Shown in pieces: positions 24,496 through 45,890 of a stretch of 64,000 bases of DNA. A program made the translations under genes and the position numbers. Positions within the stretch are counted from its first letter, which is position 1, and each line of letters starts with the position of its first letter. The notes beneath the pieces are model-generated. The model saw nothing but the letters and a program-made list of their open reading frames with translations. It was not told the origin of the DNA and searched no databases. The stretch covers positions 5,959-69,958 of the forward strand of contig CAYUAQ010000002.1 in the NCBI GenBank assembly GCA_964442705.1, given 5' to 3'. The DNA is from an uncultured Desulfobacteraceae bacterium (GTDB lineage: Bacteria; Desulfobacterota; Desulfobacteria; Desulfobacterales; JALSRD01).

Positions 24496-24984
24496 TCAGT
24501 CATCCCGGCGCAGGAAGCGGGAGACCCCTTCCAGCAGGAAAAGAAAGACCACCACCGGTATCAGCAGTTTGAACGGATACAGGGGAATGCGGAAGGCCCC
24601 CGGTGCTTTCTCTTTCATCATCAGAGAGTTCCATCCCATCCAGGACGACTGCCAGACGAGCACGCCCAGGAAGACAAGCAGCGCCACCAGGGCGATCAAG
24701 CGGGCCGTCTTTTTGAGTCGCGGCGGGAAATGGTCGTAGAATATCTCGATGCGGATGTGTTCGCCCCGGTATAGCGTGTATACGCCCGCGAACAGGATAA
24801 AAACACCGAAGAGGATCCGGTTCAGCATCCAGCCCCACATCAGCGGGTGGTTGAAGACGTATCGGGCAACCACATCGAGGGCGGTGATGGCCATGATGAC
24901 GAATATGAGGTAGCATACGATGCGGCCGGATCGGTCGGAAACCGAGTCGACAATATCAAAAAACCGGTTTAAAGCACGATTCAT
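24496..24984 (-). CDS. TRAP transporter small permease (DctQ family)
   Basis: Start at MNRALNRFFD (24984). About 160 aa, 4 TM helices. Confidence 0.8.
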   Translation of the reverse strand: MNRALNRFFDIVDSVSDRSGRIVCYLIFVIMAITALDVVARYVFNHPLMWGWMLNRILFGVFILFAGVYTLYRGEHIRIEIFYDHFPPRLKKTARLIALVALLVFLGVLVWQSSWMGWNSLMMKEKAPGAFRIPLYPFKLLIPVVVFLFLLEGVSRFLRRDD

Positions 24985-25102
24985 CTTGATCGTCCCAGTG
25001 GCTAGGCCACGTGAGGGCGGGAAAAAACCAGGAGGGTGCCTGCGCACCCTCCTCGCAACTTCCCGCTGATTTTCCTGGCAGAAAAAAGGCGGCCGCGGGA
25101 GG

Positions 25103-26161: not shown

Positions 26162-26338
26162 CGGCCTTCCTCCCTTCTGGTTGATACGTTCCATGTAAAA
26201 AAAGAACAGCGATCCTCCTTGAATATCACCTCCCTGCAGGACGAAAACACCCGTGGGGCCAGGGTTGGAAAACCCGGATGCACGGCTGGAAAAGGGCGGC
26301 CGGTATGCGCCCGATGACGATCTGCGGAGAATGAATCA

Positions 26339-29233: not shown

Positions 29234-30199
29234 TCACGAACGGCGGTCCTCCTTCTGCGGCCACAGCGAGGTGATCTGCGGCGCGTCCGTGCGATAGGTC
29301 AGCCGCTGGTCGACATCGTCTTCGCGGTAGAATTCGTTGGCCTTCTCCACACCCCGGTCGAACTTGGACATGCAGCGCATGGCCTTGTGGTTGTCGAGAA
29401 AGGCGATCTCGTGCACCAGCGCCCCCAGAAAAACGATGATGTGGCCGAAGGGGTCCACGAAGGACACCCCCTCGATGTCGATGATCACGTACTGGTCCGA
29501 AAGCGTGACGATGGGCGACCGCGGGGTGTCGCTGATCCCGATGGTCCGCACGCCGCACTGCTTGGCGTATTTCATCATCTCGATGGTACGCCGTGGGTAG
29601 CGCGGAAACGCCAGGACCACCATCAGGGTGTTGGGGGGCCCCTCGTTCAGGGCGTCGGTCAGTTCCCAGGAGAGGCTGGTGTCGACGGTCACGTCTTCGC
29701 GCACTTTTTTCAGCAGGTATCCGAAATGGTAGGCCAGTGTGGCCGAGGCCCGGTAGCCGACCACGTACACCCGCTCGGCGTCGAAAATCGTGCGGGCGAT
29801 CTTCCTGAACTCCTCTTCCGTAATCGAGGCCAGCATGTTCTGCAGGTTGGCGATGGCGTTCCGGCAGTAGCGCTGGATGGTGCTCCCCTCGTCGGAAACC
29901 GGGCGCGTGTGGGTCAGGCGCTCGGAACTGGTCAGTTCGGTGTGCAGCAGGGCCTTCATGTAGTGCAGAAAGTCGGCGTAGCCGGAAAATCCCAGGTCCA
30001 CGCTGAAACGGATGATGGTCGGTTCGCTGACGCCGCACTTTTCGGCGATCTCCCGTGCCGTCATCAGAAAGATGTTCTTGTAGTCACGCATGATCATGTC
30101 CGCCACCCGTCGCTTCTTGGGAGACAGGCGCGGATAGACTTGAATGATCCTGTCGAACAGGTCTTTCTTGGCTGACTTTATCTCTTCGCCCCGGGGCAT
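29234..30199 (-). CDS. RpiR/MurR-family transcriptional regulator (HTH_6 + SIS)
   Basis: 321 aa. HTH LMTAREIAEKCGVSEPTIIRFSVDLGFSGYADF, then a SIS-type sugar-isomerase-like fold (RVYVVGYRASATLA...). Confidence 0.85.
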   Translation of the reverse strand: MPRGEEIKSAKKDLFDRIIQVYPRLSPKKRRVADMIMRDYKNIFLMTAREIAEKCGVSEPTIIRFSVDLGFSGYADFLHYMKALLHTELTSSERLTHTRPVSDEGSTIQRYCRNAIANLQNMLASITEEEFRKIARTIFDAERVYVVGYRASATLAYHFGYLLKKVREDVTVDTSLSWELTDALNEGPPNTLMVVLAFPRYPRRTIEMMKYAKQCGVRTIGISDTPRSPIVTLSDQYVIIDIEGVSFVDPFGHIIVFLGALVHEIAFLDNHKAMRCMSKFDRGVEKANEFYREDDVDQRLTYRTDAPQITSLWPQKEDRRS

Positions 30200-30202
30200 T
30201 GG

Positions 30203-30820
30203 TCAATGATTCCTTCCATCCAGGGAAGCCAGTGCGGTTTCGGCCGCCTCCCTGGCGGCCTGGATGTCCGAGGTGGAACCGGCCAGGTAGACCCGGCCGC
30301 TGGCACCGTAGACACTGACATGGTTGATGGTGATGCCGGCGGCTTTTTCCGCCTCGTTGGCCGCGTACCCGGCATAGCCGGCCGGCACGACCTCCAGGAT
30401 GTAGAGCGTGTCGTCGCTCAGCGACAGGCTGGCCGCCCGGAAGCGGTTGACGATCTGGCTCATGTAAGGGTTCAGCCGCTCGATGACCTCCGAGGACAGA
30501 ATCTTTGGCCGCAGCCGGTCGGCCTCACTGCAGCCCAGGTAGTCCAGCACCACCTCGCCCGCCAGCCGCACGTCGTCCGGGTCGTCGGCGTGCACTTCCA
30601 GCATGCCGTAGCTGCGCTCCACCACCAGCGCGCCGGGGCGCACGTTGGCCCTTTTCATGACCGTGTCGGTGATGGTGTTGATCTCCATGCCGGGCGCGAT
30701 TTCCAGGAACAGGGCCGCCTGGCCCGTGACGGGGTAGTACCCGCGGGAAGCCGAACCGATATAGGCCACCATCTGTTTCTGGAGCTGGTCGATGAAGGCG
30801 AAGGCTCTCAGGTCGATCAT
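30203..30820 (-). CDS. BMC-T shell protein, CcmP/CsoS1D-like tandem permuted BMC domains
   Basis: 205 aa. LRAFAFIDQLQKQMVAYIGSASRGY...LEIAPGMEINTITD...VVERSYGMLEVH... and LEVVPAGYAGYAANEAEKAAGITINHV...GRVYLAG; this matches the CcmP-type pattern. Confidence 0.85.
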   Translation of the reverse strand: MIDLRAFAFIDQLQKQMVAYIGSASRGYYPVTGQAALFLEIAPGMEINTITDTVMKRANVRPGALVVERSYGMLEVHADDPDDVRLAGEVVLDYLGCSEADRLRPKILSSEVIERLNPYMSQIVNRFRAASLSLSDDTLYILEVVPAGYAGYAANEAEKAAGITINHVSVYGASGRVYLAGSTSDIQAAREAAETALASLDGRNH

Positions 30821-30899: not shown

Positions 30900-32105
30900 T
30901 CATATGCTCTTGAGCCACTCGCGCCTGTTGGGGCACACGGCCGTGACGGTGGTGCAGGCGGCGTTGCCGTCGCAGGCGCACTCGTGCTCGGCGTCTTGGT
31001 AGAAGCGCCCGTAGCAGAAATCGTGAATGGGCAGCGAGGTCTGGCAGTCCAGGATCAGCTCGCCGATCAGCCGGCCGATGACAGGCGCCAGGCCGAAACC
31101 GTGGCCGCAGAAACCCGTCACGAACACGAACCCGGGCACCTCCGAGGTGAGCCCCAGCACCGGGATGCCGTCCGAGGTCTGGGCGATGAGGCCCGACCAC
31201 ATGCGGATCACGTTGAGGTTCCTGAGCACCGGGAAATAATCGATGACCATCCGCGAAATGGCCGGCCCGATGTGGTGAAACAGCGGTTTGCCCCGGCGGT
31301 AGATGAACTGCTCGGTGCCCACGAAACCGCCCCAGAAGAAGGGTCCGTGCACCGTCTGCCGGCCGTAGAACAGCCCCCTGGCGTGCCCCACCATCTGCGC
31401 GAAGAGCGGCGGGTAGGGCTCGGTGATCATGGCCTCGGAAAAAATAGGGCGCATGGGAAAATCCAGCCCCACCATGTTGGCGATGCGCCGGCCGGCCACC
31501 CCGGCGGCGTTGACCACCACTTCGGTTTCAAAAACGTGTTTGTCGGTCACCACCGCGCTCACGCGTCCCTTGCGCAGCCGGATGCGGTGCACCTCCTCCT
31601 GGGTGTAGAAGCGCGCCCCCAGGCTCTTGGCCTTCTTGAAGTAGCCGTAAGTCACCAGGAAGGGATTGACGTGGCCATCCGTGGGACAGAAGCTGGCGCC
31701 CACGACCTTTTCTCCCACGTAGGGGTTGATCTCCAGCACCTGGCGGCGGTCGAGCATCTCCAGCTCCAGGCCCGCTTTCTTCTGGTTCTCCACCGCGTTT
31801 CGCATCAGATCCAGCTCTTCCTCGCAGGTGCACAGCCGCAGGTTTCCCTGGCGCACGTACTCCACGTCCATGCCCAATTCCTCGTGCAGCTGGCCGTACA
31901 TGCGGATGCTCTCCATGGCCAGCGGCATTTCCTTGAGGTTGCGGGCGGACTGGCGCACACCGCCGCCGGTGCTGCCGGATGCCTCGCCGCCGATGTCGGA
32001 CTTTTCGATAACCACCGGCTTCAATCCGGCCTTGGCCAGGTTGTAGGCGATGGCGCATCCCATGACGCCGCCGCCGATGATGACCGTGTCGGCTTTCTCG
32101 GTCAT
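30900..32105 (-). CDS. FAD-dependent amine/amino-acid dehydrogenase, DAO family (SoxB/HcnC/OoxB-like catalytic subunit)
   Basis: Start at MTEKADTVIIGGGVMGCAIAYNLA (32105, GGAGG RBS); the 88-aa upstream extension of the track ORF is rejected. 401 aa with a Cys-rich C-terminal tail. Confidence 0.85.
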   Translation of the reverse strand: MTEKADTVIIGGGVMGCAIAYNLAKAGLKPVVIEKSDIGGEASGSTGGGVRQSARNLKEMPLAMESIRMYGQLHEELGMDVEYVRQGNLRLCTCEEELDLMRNAVENQKKAGLELEMLDRRQVLEINPYVGEKVVGASFCPTDGHVNPFLVTYGYFKKAKSLGARFYTQEEVHRIRLRKGRVSAVVTDKHVFETEVVVNAAGVAGRRIANMVGLDFPMRPIFSEAMITEPYPPLFAQMVGHARGLFYGRQTVHGPFFWGGFVGTEQFIYRRGKPLFHHIGPAISRMVIDYFPVLRNLNVIRMWSGLIAQTSDGIPVLGLTSEVPGFVFVTGFCGHGFGLAPVIGRLIGELILDCQTSLPIHDFCYGRFYQDAEHECACDGNAACTTVTAVCPNRREWLKSI

Positions 32106-32131: not shown

Positions 32132-32797
32132 TCAGCTGTTGGCAAAAACCTGCAGGCGAATGGGCCGCACCGGACCCCGGGCGGTGGTGGGGTCGATGTC
32201 TCCGGGTGCCAAGCCCAACTCCTCGGTCAGGATGCGCGCCACCAGCGTCTGGCAGGTCTGCCCCTGGCACAGCCCCATGCCGGCCCGGGTGATGCGCTTG
32301 ATGCCGTTTAACGTATGCATGCCGTTGCGGATGGCTTCCTTGATCTCCCCCTTGGTGATCTCCTCGCATCGGCAGATGACCAGGTCGTCGTCAGGGTCGC
32401 GGGTCTGCCCGCCGGTATCGGCCCCATCCGATGCGGCCGCCGGCGCCGCCGGGGTCGGTTCCCCCTTGAGCTGCCGGAAGCGCCGGATGACGCGCTCAAC
32501 GATCTCATCGAGCTGCGCCTCGGTAAACCCGTCTGCAGCATCCGCCGCGTCCCCGCCGGATGGCTTCTCCGGCGTTTCCGGCTCTTTGGAGTCCGTCGCC
32601 GGATCGGCGGACTCTTCCTCCGGCGAAGGGGCAGGAACGCTTTTCCCCGAGGCCACCGTTTTGACGCGAATGCCGTGCTCCCGAATCAGATCGGCGGCCG
32701 CCGAAGAGATACGGGCCCCCCCGGGGACTTCGATTTCCTTCTGTCCGGACCTCACCAGGTGCCGGACTTGCTCGGCGAATATGAAAACAGGTGCCAT
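32132..32797 (-). CDS. BFD-like [2Fe-2S] protein with N-terminal EutQ-N-like motif and internal encapsulation-peptide-like helix
   Basis: 221 aa. C-terminal ICRCEEITKGEI...GMGLCQGQTC (BFD-type). The central helix EAQLDEIVERVIRRFRQL is flanked by low-complexity Pro/Ala/Glu/Asp linkers. Confidence 0.75.
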   Translation of the reverse strand: MAPVFIFAEQVRHLVRSGQKEIEVPGGARISSAAADLIREHGIRVKTVASGKSVPAPSPEEESADPATDSKEPETPEKPSGGDAADAADGFTEAQLDEIVERVIRRFRQLKGEPTPAAPAAASDGADTGGQTRDPDDDLVICRCEEITKGEIKEAIRNGMHTLNGIKRITRAGMGLCQGQTCQTLVARILTEELGLAPGDIDPTTARGPVRPIRLQVFANS

Positions 32798-32836: not shown

Positions 32837-33217
32837 TTACTTTCCGGACTTCTTCGAACGCCGCGCCGACGGCCTGGCCTTTTTCGCTCGTGCGCCGGCC
32901 CCTGCGCCCCGGGCCTTGCGGTTTCCGGCGGGCGCCGCAGCCTCGGCCGGCTGCCCAACGGCGGCATCGATGTCGTCGGAAGGCCGCGGGATCACGTGCA
33001 CCGACACCACCTGTCCGACGCGCTCGCAGGCGGCGCTGCCGGCGTCGACGGCGGCCTTGACGGCCCCCACATCGCCGCTCACCATGACGGCCACCAGGCC
33101 GCCCTTGACCTTCTGTCGCCCCAGAAATTTCACCCGGGCGGCCTTCACCATGGCGTCCGCCGCCTCGATGGCGCCCACCAGTCCGTGGGTCTCGATCATT
33201 CCCAGTGCCTGCTGCAT
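32837..33217 (-). CDS. BMC-H shell protein (PduA/EutM type) with polybasic C-terminal extension
   Basis: 126 aa. [29 protein letters not shown]...VSVHVIPRP canonical BMC domain, plus a tail ending [28 protein letters not shown]. Confidence 0.92.
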
Positions 33218-33293: not shown

Positions 33294-33911
33294 TCATGGC
33301 TTGCGCCCCTCGAGGGCCTTCAGGGTTTCGTCGATCTTGCGGGCCGCGGCCTCGATCTCCGATTCGCTGCCCGCCAGGTAGATGCGCCCGGCGGCACCGA
33401 AGAAACGAATGTCCACCAGCCGCACGTCGCAGTGCTTTTCGGCCTCGTTGGCCGCGATGGACGAGTAGGCCGCCGGTGTAACCTCCAGCAGATAGACGTC
33501 GTCCCCGCCCAGGATCAGCATGCCCTTGCTGTTGCGGTTGATGATGACGGCCTGGTAGGGGTCGATCTTGTGAATCACGCTGGACGACAGGATGCTGGGC
33601 GCCAGGCGGTCCTGCTCGCGCAGCCCGAGTTCCTCCAGAATCATCTGCCCGGCGTGCAGCACGTCCTCGCGCTCGAAAGAGTGGATCTCCATCATGCCAT
33701 AGCGCCGCTCGACGATCATTTCTCCGGGCTTGCAGTTGGTGACCTTCAGGGAAATGTCGGCCAGGCGGTTGATCTCCACCCCCGGCAGTACTTCCACGAA
33801 AAGCGACGCCATGCCCTCCACGGACAGGAATCCCCGGCACGAGCTGGCAAACAAGGATGCGAACTGCGGCTGCATGCGGTCCAGATGACAAAAGGCTCTC
33901 AGTTCGGCCAT
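33294..33911 (-). CDS. BMC-T shell protein, CcmP/CsoS1D-like (second copy)
   Basis: 205 aa, paralogous to 30203-30820. LRAFCHLDRMQPQFASLFASSCRGF...VEVLPGVEINRLAD...LEVTPAAYSSIAANEAEKHCDVRLVDI...GRIYLAG. Confidence 0.85.
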   Translation of the reverse strand: MAELRAFCHLDRMQPQFASLFASSCRGFLSVEGMASLFVEVLPGVEINRLADISLKVTNCKPGEMIVERRYGMMEIHSFEREDVLHAGQMILEELGLREQDRLAPSILSSSVIHKIDPYQAVIINRNSKGMLILGGDDVYLLEVTPAAYSSIAANEAEKHCDVRLVDIRFFGAAGRIYLAGSESEIEAAARKIDETLKALEGRKP

Positions 33912-34010: not shown

Positions 34011-34865
34011 TCATTGCTCCGGCACATCCGCCGGAACGATCCGCACGCCGTACTCCCTGGCCAGGTCGCGCGCCAGCGGTGTGACGATGCCGCCGGCGGA
34101 CAGGGTCAGGCGGTCTGCGCCGGCCTCCCTGGCCTGACGGATATCCTGGGTCGAAATCAAGCGGCGGCCCGTTTCGCCTCTCTCCGGTCCGCCGGGGCCT
34201 TCGTCGGCCAAACCTGCCCGACCGGTGCTGCGGGCCAGCTTCTCGAAATGCTCGGCCAGTCGTTCCGTCTCGCACAGCTGCATGCCGAAGCGCTCCAGTT
34301 TTTCCAGCACGCGCTGCATCTCGCGGGCCATGGCCGGGTTGGCCATCCTGTCCAGCAGCGTGAATCCGTCGTTGGCGGCCAGCACCGGCTTGTTGGCCGC
34401 AAGGGCCGAGAGCACCAGGGCGCTGCCCTGATCGTCGGCCGCCATTTGCGCCACGCGCACCGCCGTCTGAAAGCAGAAGGTCGGCAGCACCAGCACGTCC
34501 GCACGCTCGAGCACCTTCTCGATGCCATCGGGTCCGACGGTGTCCAGGATGCACCGGCTGCCCGCTTTTTCCCGCACGTCACTTCCGCAGACCCATTGGC
34601 GCGCGGCATCCACGGTAAAGACGCCGGCGCGGCCGGCCAGAGTCTCGATGCGGCGCACCTGTGCCAGGGCCGCTTCCAGCCGCCGCACACCGGGGTGAAA
34701 GACGCACAGGACCGTCGGTCCGGTCTTGTTTCGGTGCGGCGCGCGTTTTTCAGCGGGCGGCTTCACCAGCCCCTCCTCCCTGAGAATTTCCAATACCAGC
34801 CGACGGATGCGTTGCCGCCGGTCGGAAAATGCTTTTCCCTGCTGCTGTGTCACTTCGTCTTCCAC
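34011..34865 (-). CDS. BMC-associated protein of unknown function (N-terminal EP-like helix, Rossmann/flavoprotein-like middle, C-terminal EutQ-N-like motif)
   Basis: 284 aa. N-terminus RQRIRRLVLEILREEGL plus a Pro/Lys linker. Middle ADVLVLPTFCFQTAVRVAQMAADDQGSALVLSALAANKPVLAAN resembles the flavoprotein (CoaC-like) fold. C-terminus LISTQDIRQAREAGADRLTLSAGGIVTPLARDLAREYGVRIV. Confidence 0.55.
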   Translation of the reverse strand: MEDEVTQQQGKAFSDRRQRIRRLVLEILREEGLVKPPAEKRAPHRNKTGPTVLCVFHPGVRRLEAALAQVRRIETLAGRAGVFTVDAARQWVCGSDVREKAGSRCILDTVGPDGIEKVLERADVLVLPTFCFQTAVRVAQMAADDQGSALVLSALAANKPVLAANDGFTLLDRMANPAMAREMQRVLEKLERFGMQLCETERLAEHFEKLARSTGRAGLADEGPGGPERGETGRRLISTQDIRQAREAGADRLTLSAGGIVTPLARDLAREYGVRIVPADVPEQ

Positions 34866-34911: not shown

Positions 34912-35733
34912 CTAGCGCTTGTCCAGGCAGGACAACGCGATTCCCAGCGGCGTGGTGAACTGCGGAAAAGGCGGCCGGAAAGTCTCCATTCCCAACGCCT
35001 TCTGAACGATGTCGCAAAACCCCTCCAGTTCGCAGGTGCCGCCTACCAGGCAGACGCGGTTGAGCCCCTCGAAGGGCTGCAGGCATCTTTCCACGATGGC
35101 GGCGATCTTTTCGATCACCGGCCGCACCATCGAAAGTACTTCCCGGCTCATGGCCGGGTCGGTCTTGATCTTTTCGGCCGCCTCGTAGTCGATGCCGCGG
35201 TTGCCGGCCACCACCAGGGTCAGGTGCACGCCGCCGGTGGCCTCGTCGTCGGTGAAGACCACGCCTCCCCCCTGGATCACGGCGATGCCGGTGGTGCCGC
35301 CGCCCACGTCGACGATGGCGCCATTGCCGATGCCCAGCACCCGGTTGGCGGCCGTGGGTTCGTCGGGGACGCTCAGTACTTCCAGTCCTGCGCCTTCGAG
35401 AATGTAGCGCGTGGCGTCCACGTTGGCGTCCTCGGTGCGCGGCGGATAGGAGGTGGCGCCCTGTTCGACGGGCAGCGGGCTGGCGCTGCGCATCTCCTCG
35501 ATCATCTCTCCAACCATCTGCCGCGCCCCGGCAAAATCGACGATCAGCCCGCTGCGCACCACTTCCGCCCGCCGCATGCGCGCGGCCCGCGGCCTTCCCT
35601 GCTCGTCGACGATGATCACGATGGCCTTGTAGGTCCCCAGGTCCACGCCCGCATACAGCCGTTCGGCCCCCGCGAAATCCCAGCGCTGCGGGCGATTGAC
35701 CAGGCGTGACAGCGCTTTGCCCGCATCGCTCAT
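34912..35733 (-). CDS. eutJ: EutJ-like actin/Hsp70-fold ATPase
   Basis: 273 aa. Phosphate-1 YAGVDLGTYKAIV and phosphate-2 IVDVGGGTTGIAV, with the size and layout of EutJ. ATGA overlap with the next gene. Confidence 0.8.
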   Translation of the reverse strand: MSDAGKALSRLVNRPQRWDFAGAERLYAGVDLGTYKAIVIIVDEQGRPRAARMRRAEVVRSGLIVDFAGARQMVGEMIEEMRSASPLPVEQGATSYPPRTEDANVDATRYILEGAGLEVLSVPDEPTAANRVLGIGNGAIVDVGGGTTGIAVIQGGGVVFTDDEATGGVHLTLVVAGNRGIDYEAAEKIKTDPAMSREVLSMVRPVIEKIAAIVERCLQPFEGLNRVCLVGGTCELEGFCDIVQKALGMETFRPPFPQFTTPLGIALSCLDKR

Positions 35734-36281
35734 AGGATGCTCCGCCCCAGCTGCGGGCTGGGATAGGGAATGACGGTGTGGCTCAGAACCAGGCCGCTGC
35801 CCTTGAGGGTGTCGATGCCGGCCTCCACGGCCGCGTGGATGGACGACACGTCGCCCGTCAGGGTGAGAAACGATTTTCCCCCCAGCCCGGTGGCGCAGCG
35901 GATCTCGATGATCTCGACATCCGCGGCCTTGACCGCGGCGTCGGCCGCCGTGATGGCCGAGGCCACCGAGAAGGTCTCGATGACGGCCAGGGAATCGATG
36001 GCCCGGATGCGGGTGGTGGCCGTCAGGGCCGGGAACACCGAGGCGTGCACGTTGGGGATGACGAAGTCGTCCACCAAAAATTCCCCGGCCGCCTCGCGGC
36101 CGACATCCGCGGCGCGCTCCACCGAGTCCACATCGCCGGACACCAGCACCATGAACTTGCCGGCACAGATGGGCTGTGCCATGACAAGGTCCACATCGGC
36201 GGATTTGAGCATTTCGTCCGCACTTTCCACGCCGCGGGCGACGCTGTTGAGCTCGATCATGGCGATGGCTTTCAGTTCCAT
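35730..36281 (-). CDS. BMC-T shell protein, PduT-like tandem BMC domains
   Basis: Start at MELKAIAMIELNSVARGVESADEMLK (36281, GGGGA RBS), 183 aa. Second domain LAVIETFSVASAITAADAAVKAADV. Cys in AQPICAGKF sits where PduT ligates its pore [4Fe-4S] cluster. Confidence 0.85.
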   Translation of the reverse strand: MELKAIAMIELNSVARGVESADEMLKSADVDLVMAQPICAGKFMVLVSGDVDSVERAADVGREAAGEFLVDDFVIPNVHASVFPALTATTRIRAIDSLAVIETFSVASAITAADAAVKAADVEIIEIRCATGLGGKSFLTLTGDVSSIHAAVEAGIDTLKGSGLVLSHTVIPYPSPQLGRSIL

Positions 36282-36366
36282 ATTCAATCCCCGCGTTTGC
36301 GCTTGCGGTTCAGGCGCCCTTGATATCCCGGCGCCGGGACGTCTCCGGAAAAGGCGCTGTTTCTTC

Positions 36367-37698
36367 TCAACGACGGATGACAATATCAGGCCCCACCGAC
36401 ACGACCTCACCGTCGATGCTGGCGTGTACCCGCGCCCCCAGGGCGCCCTCGGGAATCTCGCCGACGAGATCCCCCTCCCGGACGCGGTCCCCGGCGCGCA
36501 CCACGGGCACGGCCGGTTTTCCCAGGTGCTGCTGCAGCGGAATGCGGACCTCGGCAATGTCGGCCGCCCCCTCTTGAAACGGCGGGTGCACATCGTAGCG
36601 CGCCACCTGCAGCCGCTCCATCAGGCGCCGGACCGGCACCTTGCGCGTTTCCAGGAACATCGAAGCCCGGTAGGTCTCGCGGCTGGGTTCACGTTTGACG
36701 CCTTCTTTAAGCAGTTTCTGTTTTACGGCCGCGTTGATTTCCCGCGGCGACAGCATCATGGGGCAGGCAAACTTCTCGCAGATGCCGCACTCGCAGCAGA
36801 TCAGGGCGTCCTCGAGTACTTCCCCCTCCATGCCCGGCGTGTAGGCCAGGTGCCGCATGATGCGGTGCGGCTCCAGCCGGTGGCCGATCAGGTAGCGCGG
36901 GCACAGGTCCGTACAGCGCGAGCACTGGGTACAGGCGGACTTGGCGATCATGCGCATCTGGGTGAGGCTGCGCTGCTTGCCCTGCAGGACATTGTGGCCG
37001 GCCGGCAGCACGATGACCCCGCTGGTGGTCTTGGTGACCGGCGCGCTCTCGTCTTCCAGCACGCGGCCCATCATGGGCCCGCCCGAGACGACGCCGTAAT
37101 CGGAGACCGTCGCCCCCCCGGCCAGGGCGATGACGTCGCGCACCGGCGTGCCGACGGGCAGCCGACAGACCATGGGCTGCCGCACTTCGCCGCACACCGT
37201 CAGATAGCGGTGGGTGACCGGTCGGCCGGCCATGGCGCGCGCGATGTTGAGCAGCGACTCCACGTTGCTGACCACGGTCTGCACGTGCAGCGGGATGCCG
37301 CCCTCGGGGACGATTTTGCCCGTCACCTCGTGCACCAGTATGAACTCGTCCCCGGCCGGGTAGAAGTCTTCCAGTTCGAACACGTCGACCCGCTCCCCGC
37401 AGCCCCGGGCGGAAACCGCCTCGCGCAGCGCCGACACGGCCTGCGGGTGCTTGGACTTCAGGCAGAGCGTGCCGCGGGGGGCATCGGTGCAGTCCATGAC
37501 CGTCAACAGGCCGTCCACGATGGTGGGCGCCTCCCCGGTCATCAGGTGCGGGTCACCGGCCAGCAGCGGTTCGCAGGAGGCGCCGTTGGCCAGCACCCGC
37601 TGCGCCTCGAACTGCAGCTTGACGTGCGTCGGGAACCCGGCGCCACCGGCGCCGACCACGCCCGCCGCCCGCACCTTGTCGACGATATCGGCTCTCAT
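36367..37698 (-). CDS. PduS/RnfC-like Fe-S flavoprotein (electron transfer)
   Basis: 443 aa. AGVVGAGGAGFPTHVKL, two ferredoxin motifs (CTQCSRCTDLCP; CCECGICEKFACP) and a C-terminal barrel-sandwich-like segment. Confidence 0.85.
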   Translation of the reverse strand: MRADIVDKVRAAGVVGAGGAGFPTHVKLQFEAQRVLANGASCEPLLAGDPHLMTGEAPTIVDGLLTVMDCTDAPRGTLCLKSKHPQAVSALREAVSARGCGERVDVFELEDFYPAGDEFILVHEVTGKIVPEGGIPLHVQTVVSNVESLLNIARAMAGRPVTHRYLTVCGEVRQPMVCRLPVGTPVRDVIALAGGATVSDYGVVSGGPMMGRVLEDESAPVTKTTSGVIVLPAGHNVLQGKQRSLTQMRMIAKSACTQCSRCTDLCPRYLIGHRLEPHRIMRHLAYTPGMEGEVLEDALICCECGICEKFACPMMLSPREINAAVKQKLLKEGVKREPSRETYRASMFLETRKVPVRRLMERLQVARYDVHPPFQEGAADIAEVRIPLQQHLGKPAVPVVRAGDRVREGDLVGEIPEGALGARVHASIDGEVVSVGPDIVIRR

Positions 37699-37988
37699 TT
37701 AGGCTTTCCGCCGGCCGCGTCGTCCATTTCCAGGTTGTCGACAATCCCGACCACCACGGCGTCCACGGGCACCGGTTCGTCGCGTCCGAAGGACTGCATG
37801 GCCGGCGTTCCCTGGGTGACGATCACCAGTTCCCCGAAGCCGGCACCCACCTCGTCGGCGGCGATCAGCACGCCGCCCTCGGGTTTCATGTTCCCGCCCA
37901 GCGGCTGAATGAACAGCAGTCTCAGCGCCGCTATGGCGTCCTTTTTCTTGCTGGACCACACGTTTCCGATCACTTTGGCTAATAACAT
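37695..37988 (-). CDS. BMC-P pentameric vertex protein (EutN/PduN/CcmL family)
   Basis: 97 aa. MLLAKVIGNVWSSKK...IAADEVGAGFGELVIVTQGTPA...VDAVVVGIVD. Confidence 0.88.
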   Translation of the reverse strand: MLLAKVIGNVWSSKKKDAIAALRLLFIQPLGGNMKPEGGVLIAADEVGAGFGELVIVTQGTPAMQSFGRDEPVPVDAVVVGIVDNLEMDDAAGGKPK

Positions 37989-38037: not shown

Positions 38038-38349
38038 TCATTTCAGATCCTCCGAGGCCTCGATGGCCGCGATGCTGGCCTTGACATCGGCGATGTCGCC
38101 GAAGACGCCGATCATGGTGATGTGCTGGGGGCACAGTCCCCGCAGGTCGAAAACGCGGACATCGGCGGCCTTCTCGGCCACGTCGGCGGCCGCGATCATG
38201 TCCACCAGCTTCCCCTGCACGAGCCCCACGGCCGTGAAGGGGATCTCCGCCTCGGCGAACACCTTCTTGCCGGCCGCCCCGGCCCGCTGCCGGAGCATCT
38301 CGAAGACCCCCGGCGCGGGGTGGGATATGATGCGCGTGTTGAATGCCAT
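38038..38349 (-). CDS. circularly permuted BMC-H shell protein (EutS/PduU-like)
   Basis: Start at MAFNTRIISHPAPGV (38349, AGGGGG RBS), 103 aa. AVGLVQGKLVDMIAAADVAEKAADVRVFDLRG...IGVFGDIADVKASIAAI parallels the EutS/PduU order of elements. Confidence 0.75.
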   Translation of the reverse strand: MAFNTRIISHPAPGVFEMLRQRAGAAGKKVFAEAEIPFTAVGLVQGKLVDMIAAADVAEKAADVRVFDLRGLCPQHITMIGVFGDIADVKASIAAIEASEDLK

Positions 38350-38544: not shown

Positions 38545-38823
38545 TCAATCGGCCTTGGGAATCGTGAATTCGATGTCGGCGTGCGGTCTGGGTATGACGT
38601 GCACCGAAACGAGTTCGCCGACGCGCTCGGCCGCGGCGCCGCCGGCATCCGTGGCCGCCTTCACGGCCCCCACGTCGCCGCGCACGAACACGGCCACCAG
38701 GCCGCCGCCCACGAACTCGCGGCCCACGAACTTCACCTTGGCTGCCTTGACCATCGCGTCGGCCGCCTCGATGGCGCCCACCAGGCCTCTGGTTTCAATC
38801 ATACCCAATGCTTGCTCGGCCAT
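38545..38823 (-). CDS. BMC-H shell protein (PduA/EutM type)
   Basis: 92 aa. [34 protein letters not shown]...[10 protein letters not shown]. Confidence 0.93.
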
Positions 38824-38902: not shown

Positions 38903-39430
38903 TCATCCGGCCGCCGCCGGCGGCCGGCCGTTTTTCAAACGAATGGCACGGGCCTGCATGGACCAATCCAGCGGCACCTCGATGGTCACCGTGGCGGTCT
39001 GGTCCATTTTTTTTCCCTGCCGCACCGCCGCCACACGGGCGTCGCCCAGTTCCCGCCCGGACCGGTCCAGGGCCGTGACAACGTCACCCTCCTCCGGCAG
39101 GGGCAGGTACTCGTAAGGCATCATCACGCTGGCGCGGCCGTCGCCGGGACCCTCGTCGACCAGGAAAATGGCCTGTCCCGGACAGATGTACACGCAGGTC
39201 CGGCAGGCTACGCACTTTTCGCCGTCCAAGTGCGGGATGCCGGTGATGTCGTCGCCCACGACGATGGCGCCGAACTTGCAGCTGGTTTCACACGGGTTGC
39301 AGGGAATGTCCTGCAGGCACTCGATGCAGGCCACCGGTCCCTTGCGGCGGCGTTCGGCTGAGGGCACTCCCGGCGCCTCCAGGAGTTCTTCTTCGGAAAG
39401 GTAGCCCGTAACAGCGGAATCATGCCCCAT
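38903..39430 (-). CDS. ferredoxin-like Fe-S subunit of the amine dehydrogenase complex
   Basis: 175 aa. Cys motifs CIECLQDIPCNPCETSC and CVACRTCVYICP. Overlaps the upstream subunit gene by 11 nt. Confidence 0.7.
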   Translation of the reverse strand: MGHDSAVTGYLSEEELLEAPGVPSAERRRKGPVACIECLQDIPCNPCETSCKFGAIVVGDDITGIPHLDGEKCVACRTCVYICPGQAIFLVDEGPGDGRASVMMPYEYLPLPEEGDVVTALDRSGRELGDARVAAVRQGKKMDQTATVTIEVPLDWSMQARAIRLKNGRPPAAAG

Positions 39431-40523
39431 CTGACTGCCCTTTCATTATGGCGTTGAGGTACTGCTTGGCCTTGCCGCGCCGCTCGCCGTGGCTGCCGCT
39501 GCGCAGCCCCTGGATGCTCTTGTACTGCCGGCCGCGCTGCTCGAGAAAGGACTTCTTGTCGAGGTAGCCCAGGCTGTGGGCGATGGCCAGCCCGGCGATG
39601 CGGCCCTCGATGATGGCGGTGCTGGCCTCCTCGATGCCGGAGATATCGCCGGCGACAAAAATACCCTCGATGGAGGTCTCCATGTTCATGTCATGGGCCG
39701 GTATGCGGCCGCCCAGGGCCGGCACGTGGGCCATGCGGCAGCCGGCCATGCGCAGCAGCTGGGTCATGGGGTTGAGACCTACGGCGATGCAGATGGTGTC
39801 GACCTCGAAATGCTTCTCGGTACCGGCGACAGGTTTCCAGGCCTCGTCCACCTGGACCACCGTGGCGCCCTCCACGCGGTCCGTCCCGTGGGCCGCCTTG
39901 ATGGTGTGCGACATCAGGAAGGGCACCCCCACGCGGGCAATCTTGGCGGCGTGCACGGCATAGGCGCCGATGCGGGGCGCCGCGTCGATGACCGCCGCCA
40001 CGCGGCAGCCAGCCTGCAGCATCTGGTAGCTCACGATGACACCCACGTTGCCCGAACCGATCATGAGGATGTCATTACCCGGCCGGATGCCGTGGATATT
40101 GGCCATGGTCTGTGCCGCGCCAGCGCCGATGACCCCGGGCAGGGTCCAGCCCGGGAAAGGGATCATGTTCTCGGAGGCGCCGGTGGCCACCAGGGTCTTT
40201 TCGCCGCGCACCTGCTCGATGCGGTCACCGATCATGACGTTCATGGCGTGGTTTTCGTAGATGCCCAGTACGACCGAATTGAGGGAGACCTCGACACCCC
40301 GTTCGCGGGCCTCGGCCAGCAGCATGCCGCCGATGTTGAACCCGCGCTCGCGGGCGTGGTGCTCCTGGGATCCGAAGAACTTGTGGATCTGCTTGAACAG
40401 CTGACCGCCCGGGCGTTCGTTTTCGTCGAACACGATCGCCTGCACCCCGTGGCGGGCGGCTTCCACGGCAGCGGCCAGCCCGGCCGGCCCGGCCCCTACG
40501 CATATCATTTCATATCGGCGCAT
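39420..40523 (-). CDS. FAD/NAD(P)-binding pyridine-nucleotide-disulfide-oxidoreductase-like subunit (HcnB/OoxA/SoxA-core-like)
   Basis: 367 aa. Two dinucleotide folds (ICVGAGPAGLAAA; MIGSGNVGVIV) and FVAGDISG near the C-terminus. No folate/GcvT-like domain. Confidence 0.8.
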   Translation of the reverse strand: MRRYEMICVGAGPAGLAAAVEAARHGVQAIVFDENERPGGQLFKQIHKFFGSQEHHARERGFNIGGMLLAEARERGVEVSLNSVVLGIYENHAMNVMIGDRIEQVRGEKTLVATGASENMIPFPGWTLPGVIGAGAAQTMANIHGIRPGNDILMIGSGNVGVIVSYQMLQAGCRVAAVIDAAPRIGAYAVHAAKIARVGVPFLMSHTIKAAHGTDRVEGATVVQVDEAWKPVAGTEKHFEVDTICIAVGLNPMTQLLRMAGCRMAHVPALGGRIPAHDMNMETSIEGIFVAGDISGIEEASTAIIEGRIAGLAIAHSLGYLDKKSFLEQRGRQYKSIQGLRSGSHGERRGKAKQYLNAIMKGQSDGA

Positions 40524-40526: not shown

Positions 40527-40844
40527 TCACTCCCTGGTCTTTGGGGGGCCCTTACCTCTCTGGGTTTCCACCACCATGCCGGCCCGGAGGGGCTCGACGC
40601 AGGTGCGGATGTTGGGCTGTCCGTTGACCACCATGATGCAGTCGGTGCAGCGGCCGATGGCGCAGAACATGCCGCGCGGTTCGTTGCGCCGGGCCGTGTA
40701 ACGGTGAACCATGACACCGTTGCTGTGCAGGGCCACGGCGATGGGTTCGCCTTCGTACCCCTCCATGGTCCTGCCGTCGTAAGTGAACTCCACCCGCGGC
40801 CCCTTTTCAAACTGTCCGAGTATGGGATGCGCTTCGATTCTCAT
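40527..40844 (-). CDS. small [2Fe-2S] subunit (HcnA / SoxA-N-terminal-like, Fer2_4 type)
   Basis: 105 aa. FTYDGRTMEGYEGEPIAVALHSNGV...FCAIGRCTDCIMVVNGQPNIRTC. Confidence 0.8.
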   Translation of the reverse strand: MRIEAHPILGQFEKGPRVEFTYDGRTMEGYEGEPIAVALHSNGVMVHRYTARRNEPRGMFCAIGRCTDCIMVVNGQPNIRTCVEPLRAGMVVETQRGKGPPKTRE

Positions 40845-40889: not shown

Positions 40890-42185
40890 CTAGTAAAACC
40901 CGAAGGGTTCGCCGAAGGTGAAATTGGACCCGATCAGCGGGATGCCGGTCATGGCACAGATCTCCAAGGTCAGCGAACGCAAATCCTCGCGCTCCAGGCT
41001 GGTCAGCTTGGTCTTGCCGGCGGCCTTGGCCAGGATGACGGCCTCGTTGGTCATGGCCTGGATGTAGTTGGCCACCTGCCGGGCGGCGCGGTCCACGTCC
41101 AGGCGAAGTCGCTCTTCGGGATCCTGGGTGCCGATGCCGAAGGCGCAGCGCCCCTCGTGGCAGCGCAGGCAGACCACGCACCCCATGGCGATCATGGCGC
41201 CGGTGCCGATGGCCACCGCATCGGCCCCCAGTGCCAGGGCCTTGGCCACGTCGGCCCCGTCCTTGATGCCGCCCGAGACGATCAGGCTGACCTCTTCCTT
41301 GACACCCATGTCCTCCAGGGAGCGCACGGCCTGCACCAGGGCCGGCAGCGTGGGAATGCCCAGGTGGTTGGAGGCCACCACCGGCGCCGCGCCGGTGCCG
41401 CCCTCGGCGCCGTCGATGACGATGCCGTCCACCCCGGCCTTGACCGCGATCTTGACGTCTTCCCAGACGCGGCCGGCGGCGATCTTGATGAAAATGGGAA
41501 TCTCACCGTCGGTGACGTCCCGCAGTTCCTCCATCTTGAGGCACAGGTCGTCGGCCCCGAAGATGTCGCCGTGGCGGGGATGGCTGTGCAGGTCGATGCC
41601 CTCGGGCAGCTGCCGGAATTCGGCGATCTCCTTGGTGATCTTGCTGGCCATCAGGTGCCCCGAGAGGCCCGGCTTGGCGCCGATGCCCACGATGATCTCC
41701 AGGGCGTCGGTGGCCTCGATGTTGCGCAGCGTGAAGCCTATGCGGCTGGGCAGGATCTGCACCACCTGCTTGTAGGAGTTGGCGCGCTCCTCGGGCAGCA
41801 GGCCGCCCTCGCCGTTGTTGATGGAGGTGCCCACGATGTCCGTGGCCTTGGCCAGGGCGATCTTGGCCTCCTTGCTCAGGGCGCCGTAAGACATGCCCGA
41901 GATCATGATGGGGGTTTCGATGACCAGGGGCTTCTTGGCGAAACGGGCGCCCAGCACCGTGCGAGTCTGGCAGTCCTCGCGGTAAGTGTCGATGGACATG
42001 CGCGTGAGCTGCGACGGCAGGAAGGTCAGGTCGTCAAAGTGCGGCAGCTTGCGCGGGGTGCCGCATCCCCGGATGCGGTGCTTGCCCGCGCTGGCCTTGT
42101 ACTTGATCTCCGATATGGTCTCCGCCGACCACACGCCCCGCTGGACATCCTTGGCTCTGGGGGTCTTCTTCTCTTCTGCGGCCAT
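40890..42185 (-). CDS. glutamate-synthase FMN-domain-like protein (MgsC/GlxD-like)
   Basis: 431 aa. ISGMSYGALS, DGAEGGTGAAP, GGIKDGADVAKALALGADAV, Cys cluster CVVCLRCHEGRC. ATGA overlap with the upstream gene. Confidence 0.85.
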   Translation of the reverse strand: MAAEEKKTPRAKDVQRGVWSAETISEIKYKASAGKHRIRGCGTPRKLPHFDDLTFLPSQLTRMSIDTYREDCQTRTVLGARFAKKPLVIETPIMISGMSYGALSKEAKIALAKATDIVGTSINNGEGGLLPEERANSYKQVVQILPSRIGFTLRNIEATDALEIIVGIGAKPGLSGHLMASKITKEIAEFRQLPEGIDLHSHPRHGDIFGADDLCLKMEELRDVTDGEIPIFIKIAAGRVWEDVKIAVKAGVDGIVIDGAEGGTGAAPVVASNHLGIPTLPALVQAVRSLEDMGVKEEVSLIVSGGIKDGADVAKALALGADAVAIGTGAMIAMGCVVCLRCHEGRCAFGIGTQDPEERLRLDVDRAARQVANYIQAMTNEAVILAKAAGKTKLTSLEREDLRSLTLEICAMTGIPLIGSNFTFGEPFGFY

Positions 42186-42886
42186 TATCCCTGTGCCCTT
42201 CGTTTGTGGGTTGGTTTGAAAAGAACGTACTCGTGACGCCCATAGACCTTGGGTACGATGGTGTGGAAATCCTCCACGCCGTGTTCGACGCCGTATTTCG
42301 CGAACAGGGCTTCCAGTGCGCTTTTTTCGCTATCCTCGACGGGGATCAGGCGCACGTTGCCACCCAGTTTTTTCTCGGCCGCCGCGTCCATCACGTGGAT
42401 GCGGCCATTGTACATAGACTCGCCGATGCCCTCGCCCACGCTTCCCAGGATCACGATGCGCCCGCCCAGGGTCATCTTGCCGGCCCAACGCCCCACGTCG
42501 CCGCACACGATGAGCGTGCCGCCCTTCATGCCCCAGCCCGCCCGGCTGCCGGAGTTTCCCCGGATCACGATGGTGCCGCCCACCATGGAGGGCGCCGCGT
42601 TGCTGCCGGTGTTCATCTCCACGATGATCTCGCCGGCCGACATGTTGTCGCCGGTGTACCAGCCGGTGTTGCCCTCGACCACGATGGCGGGCCCCTCCAG
42701 GAATCCGCCCGTGTAGAAGCCCGTGCTGCCGTGCACGGTGATTTTCCCTTCCCCCTTCAGGGCGGTGGCGAAGTTGTGGATGGAGTGGGGGTTGTCGACT
42801 TCGATCTGGGCCTCTGTCTTGATCAGCTCCCGCAGCCGGCGATTGACTTCCCGGGAGCTCATGCCTGCTATGTCTAAACGGACCAT
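42185..42886 (-). CDS. GXGXG-motif protein (glutamate synthase C-terminal-domain-like; MgsB/GlxC-like)
   Basis: Start at MVRLDIAGMSSREVNRRL (42886). Repeated beta-helix motifs (HGSTGFYTGGFLEG, EGNTGWYTGDNMSAG, RGNSGSRAGWGMKGG). Confidence 0.85.
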   Translation of the reverse strand: MVRLDIAGMSSREVNRRLRELIKTEAQIEVDNPHSIHNFATALKGEGKITVHGSTGFYTGGFLEGPAIVVEGNTGWYTGDNMSAGEIIVEMNTGSNAAPSMVGGTIVIRGNSGSRAGWGMKGGTLIVCGDVGRWAGKMTLGGRIVILGSVGEGIGESMYNGRIHVMDAAAEKKLGGNVRLIPVEDSEKSALEALFAKYGVEHGVEDFHTIVPKVYGRHEYVLFKPTHKRRAQG

Positions 42887-43773
42887 ACCCGTACTCCTCC
42901 TGGATCCATCTCCGTGGCATAGACGTCGGAGACGATGGGGGTTAAACAAATCTGTTCCGATCCCAGCAGTACCGTTCCGTCGCCCTTTTCGAAGAACAGT
43001 ACGGGCTTGATGCCCAGCCGGTCCCGCAGGGCGCCGATTTTGTCGGCGGTGGAGGCCAGGATGGTGAACACGCCGTCGAAGGTTTCCAGTCCCTGGTGAA
43101 GGGCCGCCTCCAGGTCCAGTCCCTTCTCCTTCATCTGGTGGGCCAGGAAGTGAACCGCCATCTCGGAGTCGTTGTTGGTCTTGAAGCGCACGCCCCAGCT
43201 CTCCATACGGCGGCGCATGTTGAAGTAGTTGGTGAACTGGCCGTTATGCACGATGGCCAGCTCGGGGTAGAGGTAGGAGACGAAGGGGTGCGCGAAATTG
43301 ATGTTCTCCACACTCTCGGTGGCCAGGCGCACGTGGCCGATGCCGTGGGTGCCCAGGGTGGGCGGAATGTGGTGCTGCTCCTGCAGCTCGGCGGCCGACC
43401 CCTCGTCCTTGTATACCTTGATGCGGCGGCCCAGGGAGTGCACGCAAAGTTCCGGGTGGTCGTCGATGGCCCGGTGCAGGTCGGCCATGCGGGCGTCATC
43501 CATGTCCACGCAAGCCTCGTAGAAGGTGAAAACCCCCCGTCCCTGGTAGCAGCGCTCTTCGGAGATGCGCCCGTAGGCGCCGATGACCTGCTCCAGCTTT
43601 TCACGGTGCTCTGGTGCCGTCAGCGATACCCGCAGGTCGACGGTGTCCCGGTTTTCGTAGACCGCGATCCCCGTGGCGTCCCGGCCGCGGTGGATGAGTT
43701 CCTTGAGCATGCTGATCAGATCGTTTCCCAGCGTGGGGGAATCCTTGGCAATCAGCCCGGCGATACCGCACAT
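42874..43773 (-). CDS. class II (Ntn) glutamine amidotransferase-like protein (MgsA/GlxB-like)
   Basis: 299 aa. Met-Cys N-terminus MCGIAGLIAK (Cys nucleophile after Met removal). GHVRLAT, HNGQFTNY. Confidence 0.85.
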   Translation of the reverse strand: MCGIAGLIAKDSPTLGNDLISMLKELIHRGRDATGIAVYENRDTVDLRVSLTAPEHREKLEQVIGAYGRISEERCYQGRGVFTFYEACVDMDDARMADLHRAIDDHPELCVHSLGRRIKVYKDEGSAAELQEQHHIPPTLGTHGIGHVRLATESVENINFAHPFVSYLYPELAIVHNGQFTNYFNMRRRMESWGVRFKTNNDSEMAVHFLAHQMKEKGLDLEAALHQGLETFDGVFTILASTADKIGALRDRLGIKPVLFFEKGDGTVLLGSEQICLTPIVSDVYATEMDPGGVRVWSV

Positions 43774-45446: not shown

Positions 45447-45890
45447 CTATCTCTCCAGATGGATGCAGTGGGCCAGGCAGACGTTGTCGGCGCAGGCCGG
45501 CAGCAGCCCCCGGTCGATGCGGTGATGGCAGAGGTTGCATTTCCAGGCAACCCCGGCCTCGTCATCCAGACCGATGGCATCGTAGGGGCAGGCCTCCAGG
45601 CAGGCGCCGCAGCCCGTGCACTGGTCGCGGTCCAGGATCACGATGCCGTCGGACCGGACCGTGATGGCCTCCACCGGGCAGGCGTCGGCGCAGGGGGGAT
45701 CTTCACAGTGCCGGCAGACGGTGACGCCGAAGATCACCTGCATGCGGCCGTCGATTTCGCGGGGAGCGTCTTCGTGAATGCGAATGAGCTTTACCCCGGT
45801 CGGCGCCCGGTTCTCCTGCTTGCAGGCCACCTCGCAGGTCTTGCACCCCCAGCAATAGAACGCCTCGATGAACAGAGACGGTTTTTGCAT
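45447..45890 (-). CDS. 4x[4Fe-4S] ferredoxin-like beta subunit of a molybdo/tungstopterin oxidoreductase
   Basis: Start at MQKPSLFIEAF (45890; start and upstream stop share one nt). Motifs CWGCKTCEVAC, CRHCEDPPCADACP, CTGCGACLEACP, CNLCHHR...C. Confidence 0.85.
   Translation of the reverse strand: MQKPSLFIEAFYCWGCKTCEVACKQENRAPTGVKLIRIHEDAPREIDGRMQVIFGVTVCRHCEDPPCADACPVEAITVRSDGIVILDRDQCTGCGACLEACPYDAIGLDDEAGVAWKCNLCHHRIDRGLLPACADNVCLAHCIHLER

Follow-up and report, generated by a model that had tools for sequence, protein, structure and literature searches.

In the window analysed here, 64,000 nucleotides (positions 5,959 to 69,958 of contig CAYUAQ010000002.1) from an uncultured Desulfobacteraceae bacterium, two minus-strand genes spanning 35730-37698 lie within a bacterial microcompartment (BMC) locus. 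The upstream gene encodes a PduS-like flavin and iron-sulfur (Fe-S) protein, and the downstream gene encodes a PduT-like shell protein. Sequence and structure comparisons indicate that this pair is probably the electron-export module of a MIC6-type metabolosome, corresponding to the PduS homologues renamed MNdh, and their BMC-T^SE partners, of Sutter et al. 2024 (PNAS; PMC11626177). The features of the locus are listed in Table 1.

The PduS-like protein comprises four Pfam domains, Complex1_51K (residues 9-153; E 2e-39), SLBB (166-212), Fer4_17 (255-317) and RnfC_N (382-437), in the order characteristic of MNdh proteins, PF01512, PF10531, a 4Fe-4S dicluster domain and PF13375. Its best matches among solved structures are RnfC subunits (7ZC6_C, E 4e-53), with which it aligns in two pieces, the C-terminal 70 residues pairing with the RnfC N-terminus. 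The location of RnfC_N at the C-terminus thus reveals the circular permutation relative to RnfC that is the defining trait of PduS-type proteins (PMC11626177). While the FMN/NADH, SLBB and dicluster domains align with RnfC of the Rnf complex over about 310 residues, the PduS-like protein differs in this displaced domain, in the lack of other rnf genes and in having a shell protein, rather than a membrane complex, as its partner. The glycine-rich FMN/NADH motif is GVVGAGGAGFPTHVK, and the pattern G[VI]VGAGGAG[FL]P is fixed in 70 PduS homologues save for the two bracketed positions. All eight cluster ligands, Cys256/259/262/266 and Cys301/304/307/312, are kept in 70/70 homologues. The protein begins straight at the FMN domain, without an encapsulation peptide, which fits recruitment via its shell partner. 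The two genes are separated by 85 bp, and PduS and PduT are neighbours in every related locus holding both. The domain order, the motifs, the adjoining BMC-T^S protein with its pore cysteine and the presence of an aldehyde dehydrogenase (AldDH) in the locus identify 36367-37698 as a predicted MNdh.

The open reading frame (ORF) originally listed for the PduT-like protein, 35730-36593, is over-extended. The true start is the methionine of MELKAIAMIELNS, giving 35730-36281, and an identical protein with the same gene call is found on Logan contig L001. The protein displays two BMC domains (PF00936, E 1e-45) and aligns over its full length with a Desulfitobacterium tandem BMC protein (PDB code 3NWG; E 7e-51) and with PduT of C. 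freundii (3PAC; E 3e-44) and S. enterica (3N79; E 9e-42). Cys39, within AQPICAGKF, lines up with the cysteine of ICPGKF in 3PAC, which is the PduT pore ligand Cys38. In the sequence crystallised as 3N79, the C38S mutant of PduT, it pairs with the serine at residue 38. The pore cysteine is kept in 69/69 PduT homologues adjoining PduS. An earlier, sequence-only reading of this DNA had placed a PduS/RnfC-like FMN/Fe-S protein directly upstream of a PduT-like BMC-T and had equated the cysteine of AQPICAGKF with the PduT pore [4Fe-4S] ligand; the Pfam domains, structure alignments and short intergenic gap bear out the former claim, and the register with 3PAC and the conservation of the cysteine the latter.

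The residues flanking the ligand are more variable. The same 69 homologues present PICAGK[FY] in 31 cases, including the window, CPGR in 34, CPGK in three and CSGR in one. The motif CP(G/S)K, stated to be universal in the pore of BMC-T^SE (PMC11626177), therefore fails to be so in this Desulfobacterota lineage, while the ligand cysteine itself is retained. As the proline and lysine are not universal, the pore cysteine was taken here as the defining feature of BMC-T^SE. With tandem PF00936 domains, a length of about 184 residues, the single-layer trimer type and this cysteine, 35730-36281 is predicted to be a BMC-T^SE.

A search with the PduS-like protein against one genome per species retrieved 69 loci, nearly all from Desulfobacterota, which were compared through a tblastn matrix of 30 window proteins and an ORF map. 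The closest loci belong to Desulfobacteraceae metagenome-assembled genomes (MAGs), with PduS identities of 96-98%. A diagnostic GrpU-type shell gene is carried by 37 loci, all in Desulfobacterota. Some of these are short, but the gene order is the same from a glutamine synthetase (GS)-like gene to the AldDH gene in the roughly 28 that are of sufficient length. The conserved core of these syntenic loci contains no extra ORF of at least 120 residues, so that neither PduL nor an alcohol dehydrogenase (ADH) is hidden there. Recurrent unmatched ORFs flanking the related loci were considered as PduL or ADH candidates and rejected. By their sequences alone, as no family search was made, they resemble ATPases and permeases of Liv-type ABC transporters, a reductase of the PanE/ApbA kind and pieces of genes mapped already. 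The other loci, among them those of Maridesulfovibrio, Mailhella and Desulforhopalus, have only PduS, PduT, EutJ and shell genes in common with the window, at about 55% identity, and belong to another compartment type; PduS of such a non-syntenic, probably GRM-type, Desulfovibrionales group is only about 56% identical to the window protein.

MIC6 is represented in the 2021 catalogue by three loci from anaerobic Deltaproteobacteria, with no function assigned in the text (Sutter 2021, Supplementary Data 2) and function listed as unknown. The catalogued features comprise an AldDH with an N-terminal encapsulation peptide (EP), a [2Fe-2S] protein of pfam04324, an oxidoreductase of pfam01266 whose C-terminus is extended by a 4xCys segment, and a PduT-type BMC-T. 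Each of these is found in the window locus, where the oxidoreductase tail has five conserved cysteines. The incomplete core of MIC6 is likewise observed, with no phosphotransacylase (PTAC) or ADH in the locus, and the host is of the expected kind, the nearest loci being from Desulfobacteraceae MAGs and the window containing Hmc-type cytochrome genes. In contrast, the catalogue text omits the GS-like, split glutamate synthase (GOGAT)-like and split SoxA-like genes that are conserved upstream in the related loci. From these comparisons, MIC6 now includes at least 37 species-level loci, against three catalogued; one MIC6-type locus, L065, is from a cultured organism, Desulfococcaceae bacterium HSG9. 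Literature searches brought up no follow-up on MIC6 compartments, the papers retrieved under that name dealing with mitochondrial MICOS.

Some 60 ORFs that together span nearly all of the 64-kb window were scanned with Pfam, which revealed no PTAC/PduL, no Pta and no Fe- or Zn-type ADH, and no B12-binding domain, EutBC/PduCDE, adenosyltransferase or reactivase. No riboswitch of any kind, cobalamin included, was identified in the window with Rfam, and promoter and terminator scans were uninformative in its GC-rich DNA. The lack of an ADH, a phosphotransacylase and a cobalamin-dependent enzyme from the locus, already noted in the sequence-only reading, thus holds in these scans and in about 28 syntenic loci. 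The only alcohol/ketone-type dehydrogenases in the window are two short-chain dehydrogenases/reductases (SDRs) at 58633-60331 (+), which belong to a different operon roughly 20 kb distant.

In the proposed mechanism, a flavin amine dehydrogenase (the DAO and BFD proteins, probably with the Fer2_4, Pyr_redox_2 and Fer4 subunits) would release an aldehyde in the lumen, which the EutE-type dehydrogenase would turn into acyl-CoA while reducing NAD+. Bound to the PduT-like trimer on the side facing the lumen, the PduS-like protein would oxidise NADH at its FMN, and the electrons would pass singly through its two [4Fe-4S] clusters to a cluster held by three Cys39 residues in the trimer pore. A cytosolic carrier would accept them, regenerating NAD+ without an alcohol by-product. 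Since the locus has no ADH, the PduS-like protein on the PduT-like trimer would be the visible way to regenerate NAD+. For the window system, we infer both the lumenal location of the PduS-like protein and the identity of the outside acceptor. The earlier proposal that reducing equivalents from both amine and aldehyde oxidation leave through PduS and PduT is sustained for NADH, as all features of the route are present and conserved and homologues have been studied experimentally (PMC11626177). It is not sustained for the amine-derived electrons: the amine-oxidising flavoenzyme has its own Fe-S chain and its electrons need not pass through NADH, leaving their export via PduS unsupported.

The idea of electron export through such a pair, raised in the sequence-only reading, has been published. 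Electron shuttling via PduS/PduT in compartments of this kind was proposed by Ferlez et al. 2019 (PMC6325248), the same proposal was made explicitly for a sulfite reducer without ADH in its locus (Burrichter et al. 2021; PMC8667426) and PduS/T pairs were catalogued in many types without B12 enzymes (Sutter 2021). The 2024 work formalised the pair as MNdh/BMC-T^SE, counting 2,172 loci with MNdh, 361 of which have the pair but no ADH, MIC types being named among them (PMC11626177). Its path from NADH to FMN, two clusters and the pore cluster is backed by activity assays, electron paramagnetic resonance, voltammetry and modelling with C. botulinum GRM1 proteins; the model sets three clusters in line, homologues were shown to oxidise NADH, to have their clusters reduced (by electron paramagnetic resonance) and to have potentials consistent with outward electron flow, and NAD+ regeneration was proposed (PMC11626177). 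The window pair shares with the C. botulinum GRM1 proteins the permuted four-domain architecture, the FMN/NADH motif, two tetracysteine motifs, a neighbouring single-layer tandem BMC-T with pore cysteine, an acylating AldDH and a locus without ADH, and differs from them in belonging to MIC6 rather than GRM1 and in its CAGK pore motif. The PduS domain order is also that of S. enterica and C. freundii PduS, whose PduT partners align end-to-end with the PduT-like protein with the pore cysteine in register. Unlike those Pdu systems, the window locus has no diol dehydratase, PduO, PduGH, PduQ or PduL, which leaves it without the means for B12 recycling or for regenerating NAD+ by an ADH. The isethionate/taurine compartment of Bilophila wadsworthia resembles the window system in its sulfite/sulfate-reducing Desulfobacterota host, NADH-making AldDH and lack of ADH; PduS was found in purified compartments and the same electron-export proposal was made, whereas that system uses a glycyl-radical signature enzyme and a PTAC (PMC8667426).

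Several points weigh against the window pair being an electron-export module. Its pore motif is CAGK and not the published CP(G/S)K, and in vivo support for electron export is still indirect even in model systems (PMC11626177). The absence of PduL and ADH covers the 64-kb window and the syntenic loci, and a copy may lie elsewhere in the genome. The locus also presents other possible electron sinks or routes, namely the GOGAT-like FMN/Fe-S enzyme, the GrpU-type pore and a flavoprotein-fold protein, which are considered below with the components to which they belong.

Table 1. Predicted features of the compartment locus, listed from the highest coordinate (45195) to the lowest (27721); every gene is encoded on the minus strand, with short intergenic gaps.
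Feature	Position	Strand	Basis and remarks
Glutamine-synthetase-like ligase	43855-45195	(-)	PF00120 E 4e-103; below GlnA, GmaS-type and PuuA model cut-offs
Class-II (Ntn) amidotransferase, N-terminal Met-Cys	42874-43773	(-)	PF13522 + PF13537
GXGXG-domain protein (GOGAT domain 3 / MgsB-like)	42185-42949 (start codon uncertain)	(-)	PF01493
Glutamate-synthase FMN-domain protein	40890-42185	(-)	PF01645 E 7e-103; Cx5Cx4C (C336/C342/C347) + C339
[2Fe-2S] Fer2_4 subunit, SoxA (10-99)-like	40527-40844	(-)	PF13510 E 6e-29
FAD/NAD(P)-binding Pyr_redox_2 subunit, SoxA (171-503)-like	39420-40523	(-)	PF07992; TIGR01372 soxA region; PDB 2GAG_A, 1Y56_A
4Fe-4S ferredoxin-domain protein, 175 aa	38903-39430	(-)	Pfam Fer4 families
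BMC-H hexamer protein	38545-38823	(-)	PF00936, E 1e-27
GrpU-type permuted BMC-H, pore motif GLCPQH	38038-38349	(-)	Partial Pfam BMC domain; 103-aa gene call on L001
BMC-P vertex protein (EutN/CcmL)	37695-37988	(-)	PF03319, E 1e-25
PduS-type protein (MNdh)	36367-37698	(-)	443 aa; FMN/NADH domain, SLBB, 2x[4Fe-4S], C-terminal RnfC_N
PduT-type tandem-BMC shell protein (BMC-T^SE)	35730-36281	(-)	183 aa; pore Cys39 (codon 36165-36167), motif PICAGKF
EutJ-family actin-fold ATPase	34912-35733	(-)	NCBIfam NF011660, 300 bits (cut-off 182)
BMC-associated 284-aa protein	34011-34865 (start codon uncertain)	(-)	EP-like N-terminal helix, flavoprotein-fold (HFCD/pfam02441-like) core, C-terminal 'IVTPLARD' domain
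BMC-T double-stacking (CcmP/HO-5816-like), copy 1	33294-33911	(-)	PDB 5V74/6N07 E 1e-60; CcmP E 1e-54
BMC-H with basic C-terminal tail	32837-33217	(-)	PF00936, E 1e-27
BFD-type [2Fe-2S] / SoxA-A3 protein, N-terminal small domain	32132-32797	(-)	PF04324 + PF17806; internal EP-like helix (AQLDEIVERVIRRFRQL)
FAD amine dehydrogenase (SoxB / proline dehydrogenase beta-like; DAO), Cys-rich C-terminal tail	30900-32105	(-)	PF01266 E 7e-73
BMC-T double-stacking, copy 2	30203-30820	(-)	Weak PF00936 match; 44% identity to copy 1 (tblastn)
RpiR-family regulator inside operon	29234-30199	(-)	PF01418 + PF01380; position conserved in related loci
EutE-type aldehyde dehydrogenase	27721-29193	(-)	NCBIfam NF011927, 520 bits (cut-off 403)

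The AldDH at 27721-29193 presents a conserved N-terminal amphipathic helix (EP) followed by a variable linker. It belongs, by family assignment, to the EutE/PduP acylating enzymes and is predicted to make NADH. Five related loci (L017, L019, L026, L032 and L064) apparently contain two tandem EutE-type copies, seen as consecutive tblastn matches, against one in the window. Among PDB entries, the DAO subunit comes closest to 1Y56_B (E 3e-51), the beta subunit of a proline dehydrogenase complex from Pyrococcus. The internal helix of the BFD protein, AQLDEIVERVIRRFRQL, looks like the AldDH encapsulation peptide. In the alpha subunit of sarcosine oxidase, the Fer2_4, Pyr_redox_2 and BFD proteins correspond, in order, to residues 10-99, 171-503 and 523-596. 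The first 600 residues of this subunit appear to be divided among three proteins, with the folate-binding half missing; neither a GcvT-like folate domain nor gamma or delta sarcosine-oxidase subunits were found. Without the folate-binding half the aldehyde would be left free, which provides a rationale for encapsulation. Judged from this composition, the aldehyde-forming enzyme is probably not a simple oxidase.

The GS-like ligase reaches 320 bits against TIGR03105, whose cut-off is 470, and 321 against GlnA, whose cut-off is 429, and its PDB matches favour glutamine synthetases (272 bits) over GmaS (214 bits). The split amidotransferase, GXGXG and FMN order beside a ligase is gmaS-mgsABC-like and is also compatible with an archaeal-type split glutamate synthase. 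Assignment to the N-methylglutamate pathway (GmaS/MgsABC/MgdABCD) was rejected because the ligase falls under every cut-off and the dehydrogenase is without the folate domain and the small subunits, only a SoxB/proline dehydrogenase beta-like subunit being present as against the four-subunit sarcosine-oxidase-type dehydrogenase of that pathway. We found no paper joining MIC6 compartments with this pathway; the sole co-mention of 'microcompartment' and 'methylglutamate' appears incidental. These genes could have an N-alkylglutamate-forming role, or could encode a real GS/GOGAT that traps released ammonia and is a possible electron sink. Wherever a syntenic locus reaches far enough upstream, the GS-like and GOGAT-like genes precede the shell genes, except that L020 has no GS-like gene. 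L035, from a Desulfobacula sp. MAG, is rearranged, with GOGAT-like genes between BMC-H and BMC-P and the GS-like gene after BMC-T; this order suggests that the GS/GOGAT-like enzymes are closely tied to the compartment.

The same gene set underlies an unlikely alternative to electron export, in which NADH electrons would stay in the lumen and pass through small Fe-S proteins (the 175-residue Fer4 protein and Fer2_4) to the GOGAT-like enzyme, making glutamate from released ammonia, the PduT cluster then being structural or a redox sensor. The GOGAT-like FMN subunit does keep its Cx5Cx4C cluster ligands, its genes accompany the compartment as described, L020 alone lacking the GS-like one, and in L035 they sit among the shell genes themselves. 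However, no EP-like extension was seen on the GS-like, amidotransferase, GXGXG or FMN subunits. Furthermore, the strict adjacency of PduS and PduT and the invariant pore cysteine argue that the shell cluster is used, and the published in-line arrangement of three clusters (PMC11626177) points the same way.

Among the shell components, the two CcmP-like BMC-T proteins recognised in the sequence-only reading are confirmed by structure matches (HO-5816, E 1e-60; CcmP, E 1e-54). That account did not include the GrpU-type protein at 38038-38349. The GrpU pore motif is defined as G-X-C-P-Q-N/H (PMC6325248), and the G-x-CPQH form is unchanged in 37 related loci, making the protein a candidate second Fe-S pore of the same shell; GrpU was reported as almost exclusive to glycyl-radical compartments. 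In the absence of a PTAC from the locus, acyl-CoA must leave the compartment and CoA must enter, and the two double-stacking BMC-T proteins would be the obvious candidates for this traffic. Extended to NAD(H), such exchange through the gated CcmP-like pores could itself settle the redox balance, with PduS/PduT only supplementing or tuning it. Both double-stacking BMC-T genes are conserved members of the locus, CoA species have to cross the shell by some means and the MNdh authors allow low-flux exchange (PMC11626177). Nevertheless, the retention of the pair in every related locus, with invariant cofactor ligands, and the 361 catalogued loci that have the pair without ADH (PMC11626177) make a merely supplementary role improbable.

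The 284-residue protein has no Pfam match and scores 52 bits on TIGR02536, below cut-off. More than 300 homologues occur in metagenomes. The protein displays an N-terminal amphipathic helix and linker, and in an alignment four cysteines, C93, C105, C131 and C198, are invariant. Foldseek searches with the AF2 model (pLDDT 80) matched its core to FMN proteins of the PPC decarboxylase, EpiD, UbiX and DmrB fold (E 1e-4 to 2e-3; TM about 0.6 on target). The 'IVTPLARD...VRIV' mini-domain at its C-terminus is seen again in the BFD protein, there at the N-terminal end. A role as a hidden phosphotransacylase was rejected, the protein being not PduL and its model having a flavoprotein fold. We regard it as a candidate lumenal redox mediator, a kind of partner mentioned as possible in the 2024 MNdh paper (PMC11626177).

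Such a protein could also be the recipient if the PduS-like protein served to keep a lumenal enzyme reduced, the other possible target being the Cys-rich tail of DAO, or if electrons entered through PduT. An NADH:flavodoxin-reductase idea has been raised for glycyl-radical compartments (PMC6325248), and the flavoprotein-fold protein, with its EP-like helix and invariant cysteines, is encoded two genes downstream of PduT. Inward or lumenal reduction is nevertheless quite improbable here, since the two reactions predicted for the lumen are both oxidative, no enzyme of reductive or radical type was found in the locus (Pfam) and the measured PduS/PduT potentials favour outward flow (PMC8667426, PMC6325248). 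Finally, cobalamin recycling by the pair, historically the first role assigned to PduS (PMC2982820), is hardly credible here, given that neither a B12-dependent enzyme, adenosyltransferase or B12-binding domain (Pfam) nor a cobalamin riboswitch (Rfam) occurs in the 64 kb and that the conserved core of the syntenic loci, having no extra ORF, holds none of these genes.

Taken with the amine dehydrogenase and GS/GOGAT-like genes, electron export through PduS and PduT may form part of a broader scheme, which we advance tentatively and consider rather doubtful as a whole. MIC6 would be an anaerobic amine-oxidising organelle in which a sarcosine-oxidase / proline-dehydrogenase-like Fe-S flavoenzyme, having lost its folate domain, oxidises an N-substituted glutamate or similar amine to give a free aldehyde, and the conserved GS-like and split GOGAT-like enzymes supply that amine. 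In this same tentative scheme the shell would have two electron exits, one for NADH electrons through PduS and the CAGK pore of PduT, and the other for higher-potential flavin electrons through the Cys-rich tail, the BFD protein and the GrpU-type pore, possibly with the flavoprotein-fold protein as mediator.

The surroundings of the locus contain further redox and transport genes. Upstream, at 45447-48082 (-), are a cytoplasmic molybdopterin oxidoreductase (730 residues), whose nearest models are PhsA and Fdh-alpha, none over cut-off, and its Fer4_11 partner. The oxidoreductase is found in four related loci (L010, L015, L021 and L033), there on the opposite strand, and could be an acceptor of exported electrons. 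With this pair, the Fer2_4 subunit, the 175-residue Fer4 protein and the BFD [2Fe-2S] protein, the count of at least four additional Fe-S proteins given in the sequence-only reading proves correct. An IclR regulator also lies upstream, while a class-I amidotransferase-fold protein, RidA and a TRAP transporter lie downstream. The transporter beside the locus varies, being of TRAP type in the window (23175-26194), L022, L025 and L045, and Liv-type ABC-like in the upstream flanks of several loci (L014, L016, L018, L026 and L032; judged from sequence, with no family search). Such differences between genomes mean that the substrate may vary or may be an amino-acid-like anion. The operon at 52503-62100 (+) comprises a TctCBA transporter, two class-III aminotransferases, the two SDRs and an aldehyde:ferredoxin oxidoreductase, and is a second, non-encapsulated amine/aldehyde route. 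The Hmc-like set at 671-6889 (-) fits a host that reduces sulfate; it codes for a multihaem class III cytochrome together with a Fer4_11 protein, a membrane protein of NrfD type and a CCG-domain Fe-S protein.

The use of PduS and PduT, without B12 chemistry, to export electrons for NAD+ regeneration is a published and partly tested paradigm, and the locus described here is a further MIC6 member. Minor new points are the CAGK pore variant, the growth of MIC6 to at least 37 species-level loci and the putative cargo protein with a flavoprotein fold. Also new, the conserved presence of GS-like, GOGAT-like and sarcosine-oxidase-like genes alongside the compartment offers a testable lead to MIC6 function. 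The locus provides a clean natural case, in which no NAD+ recycler other than the pair is visible, the shell appears to possess two different candidate Fe-S pore proteins and a sulfate-reducing host could use the exported electrons for respiration.

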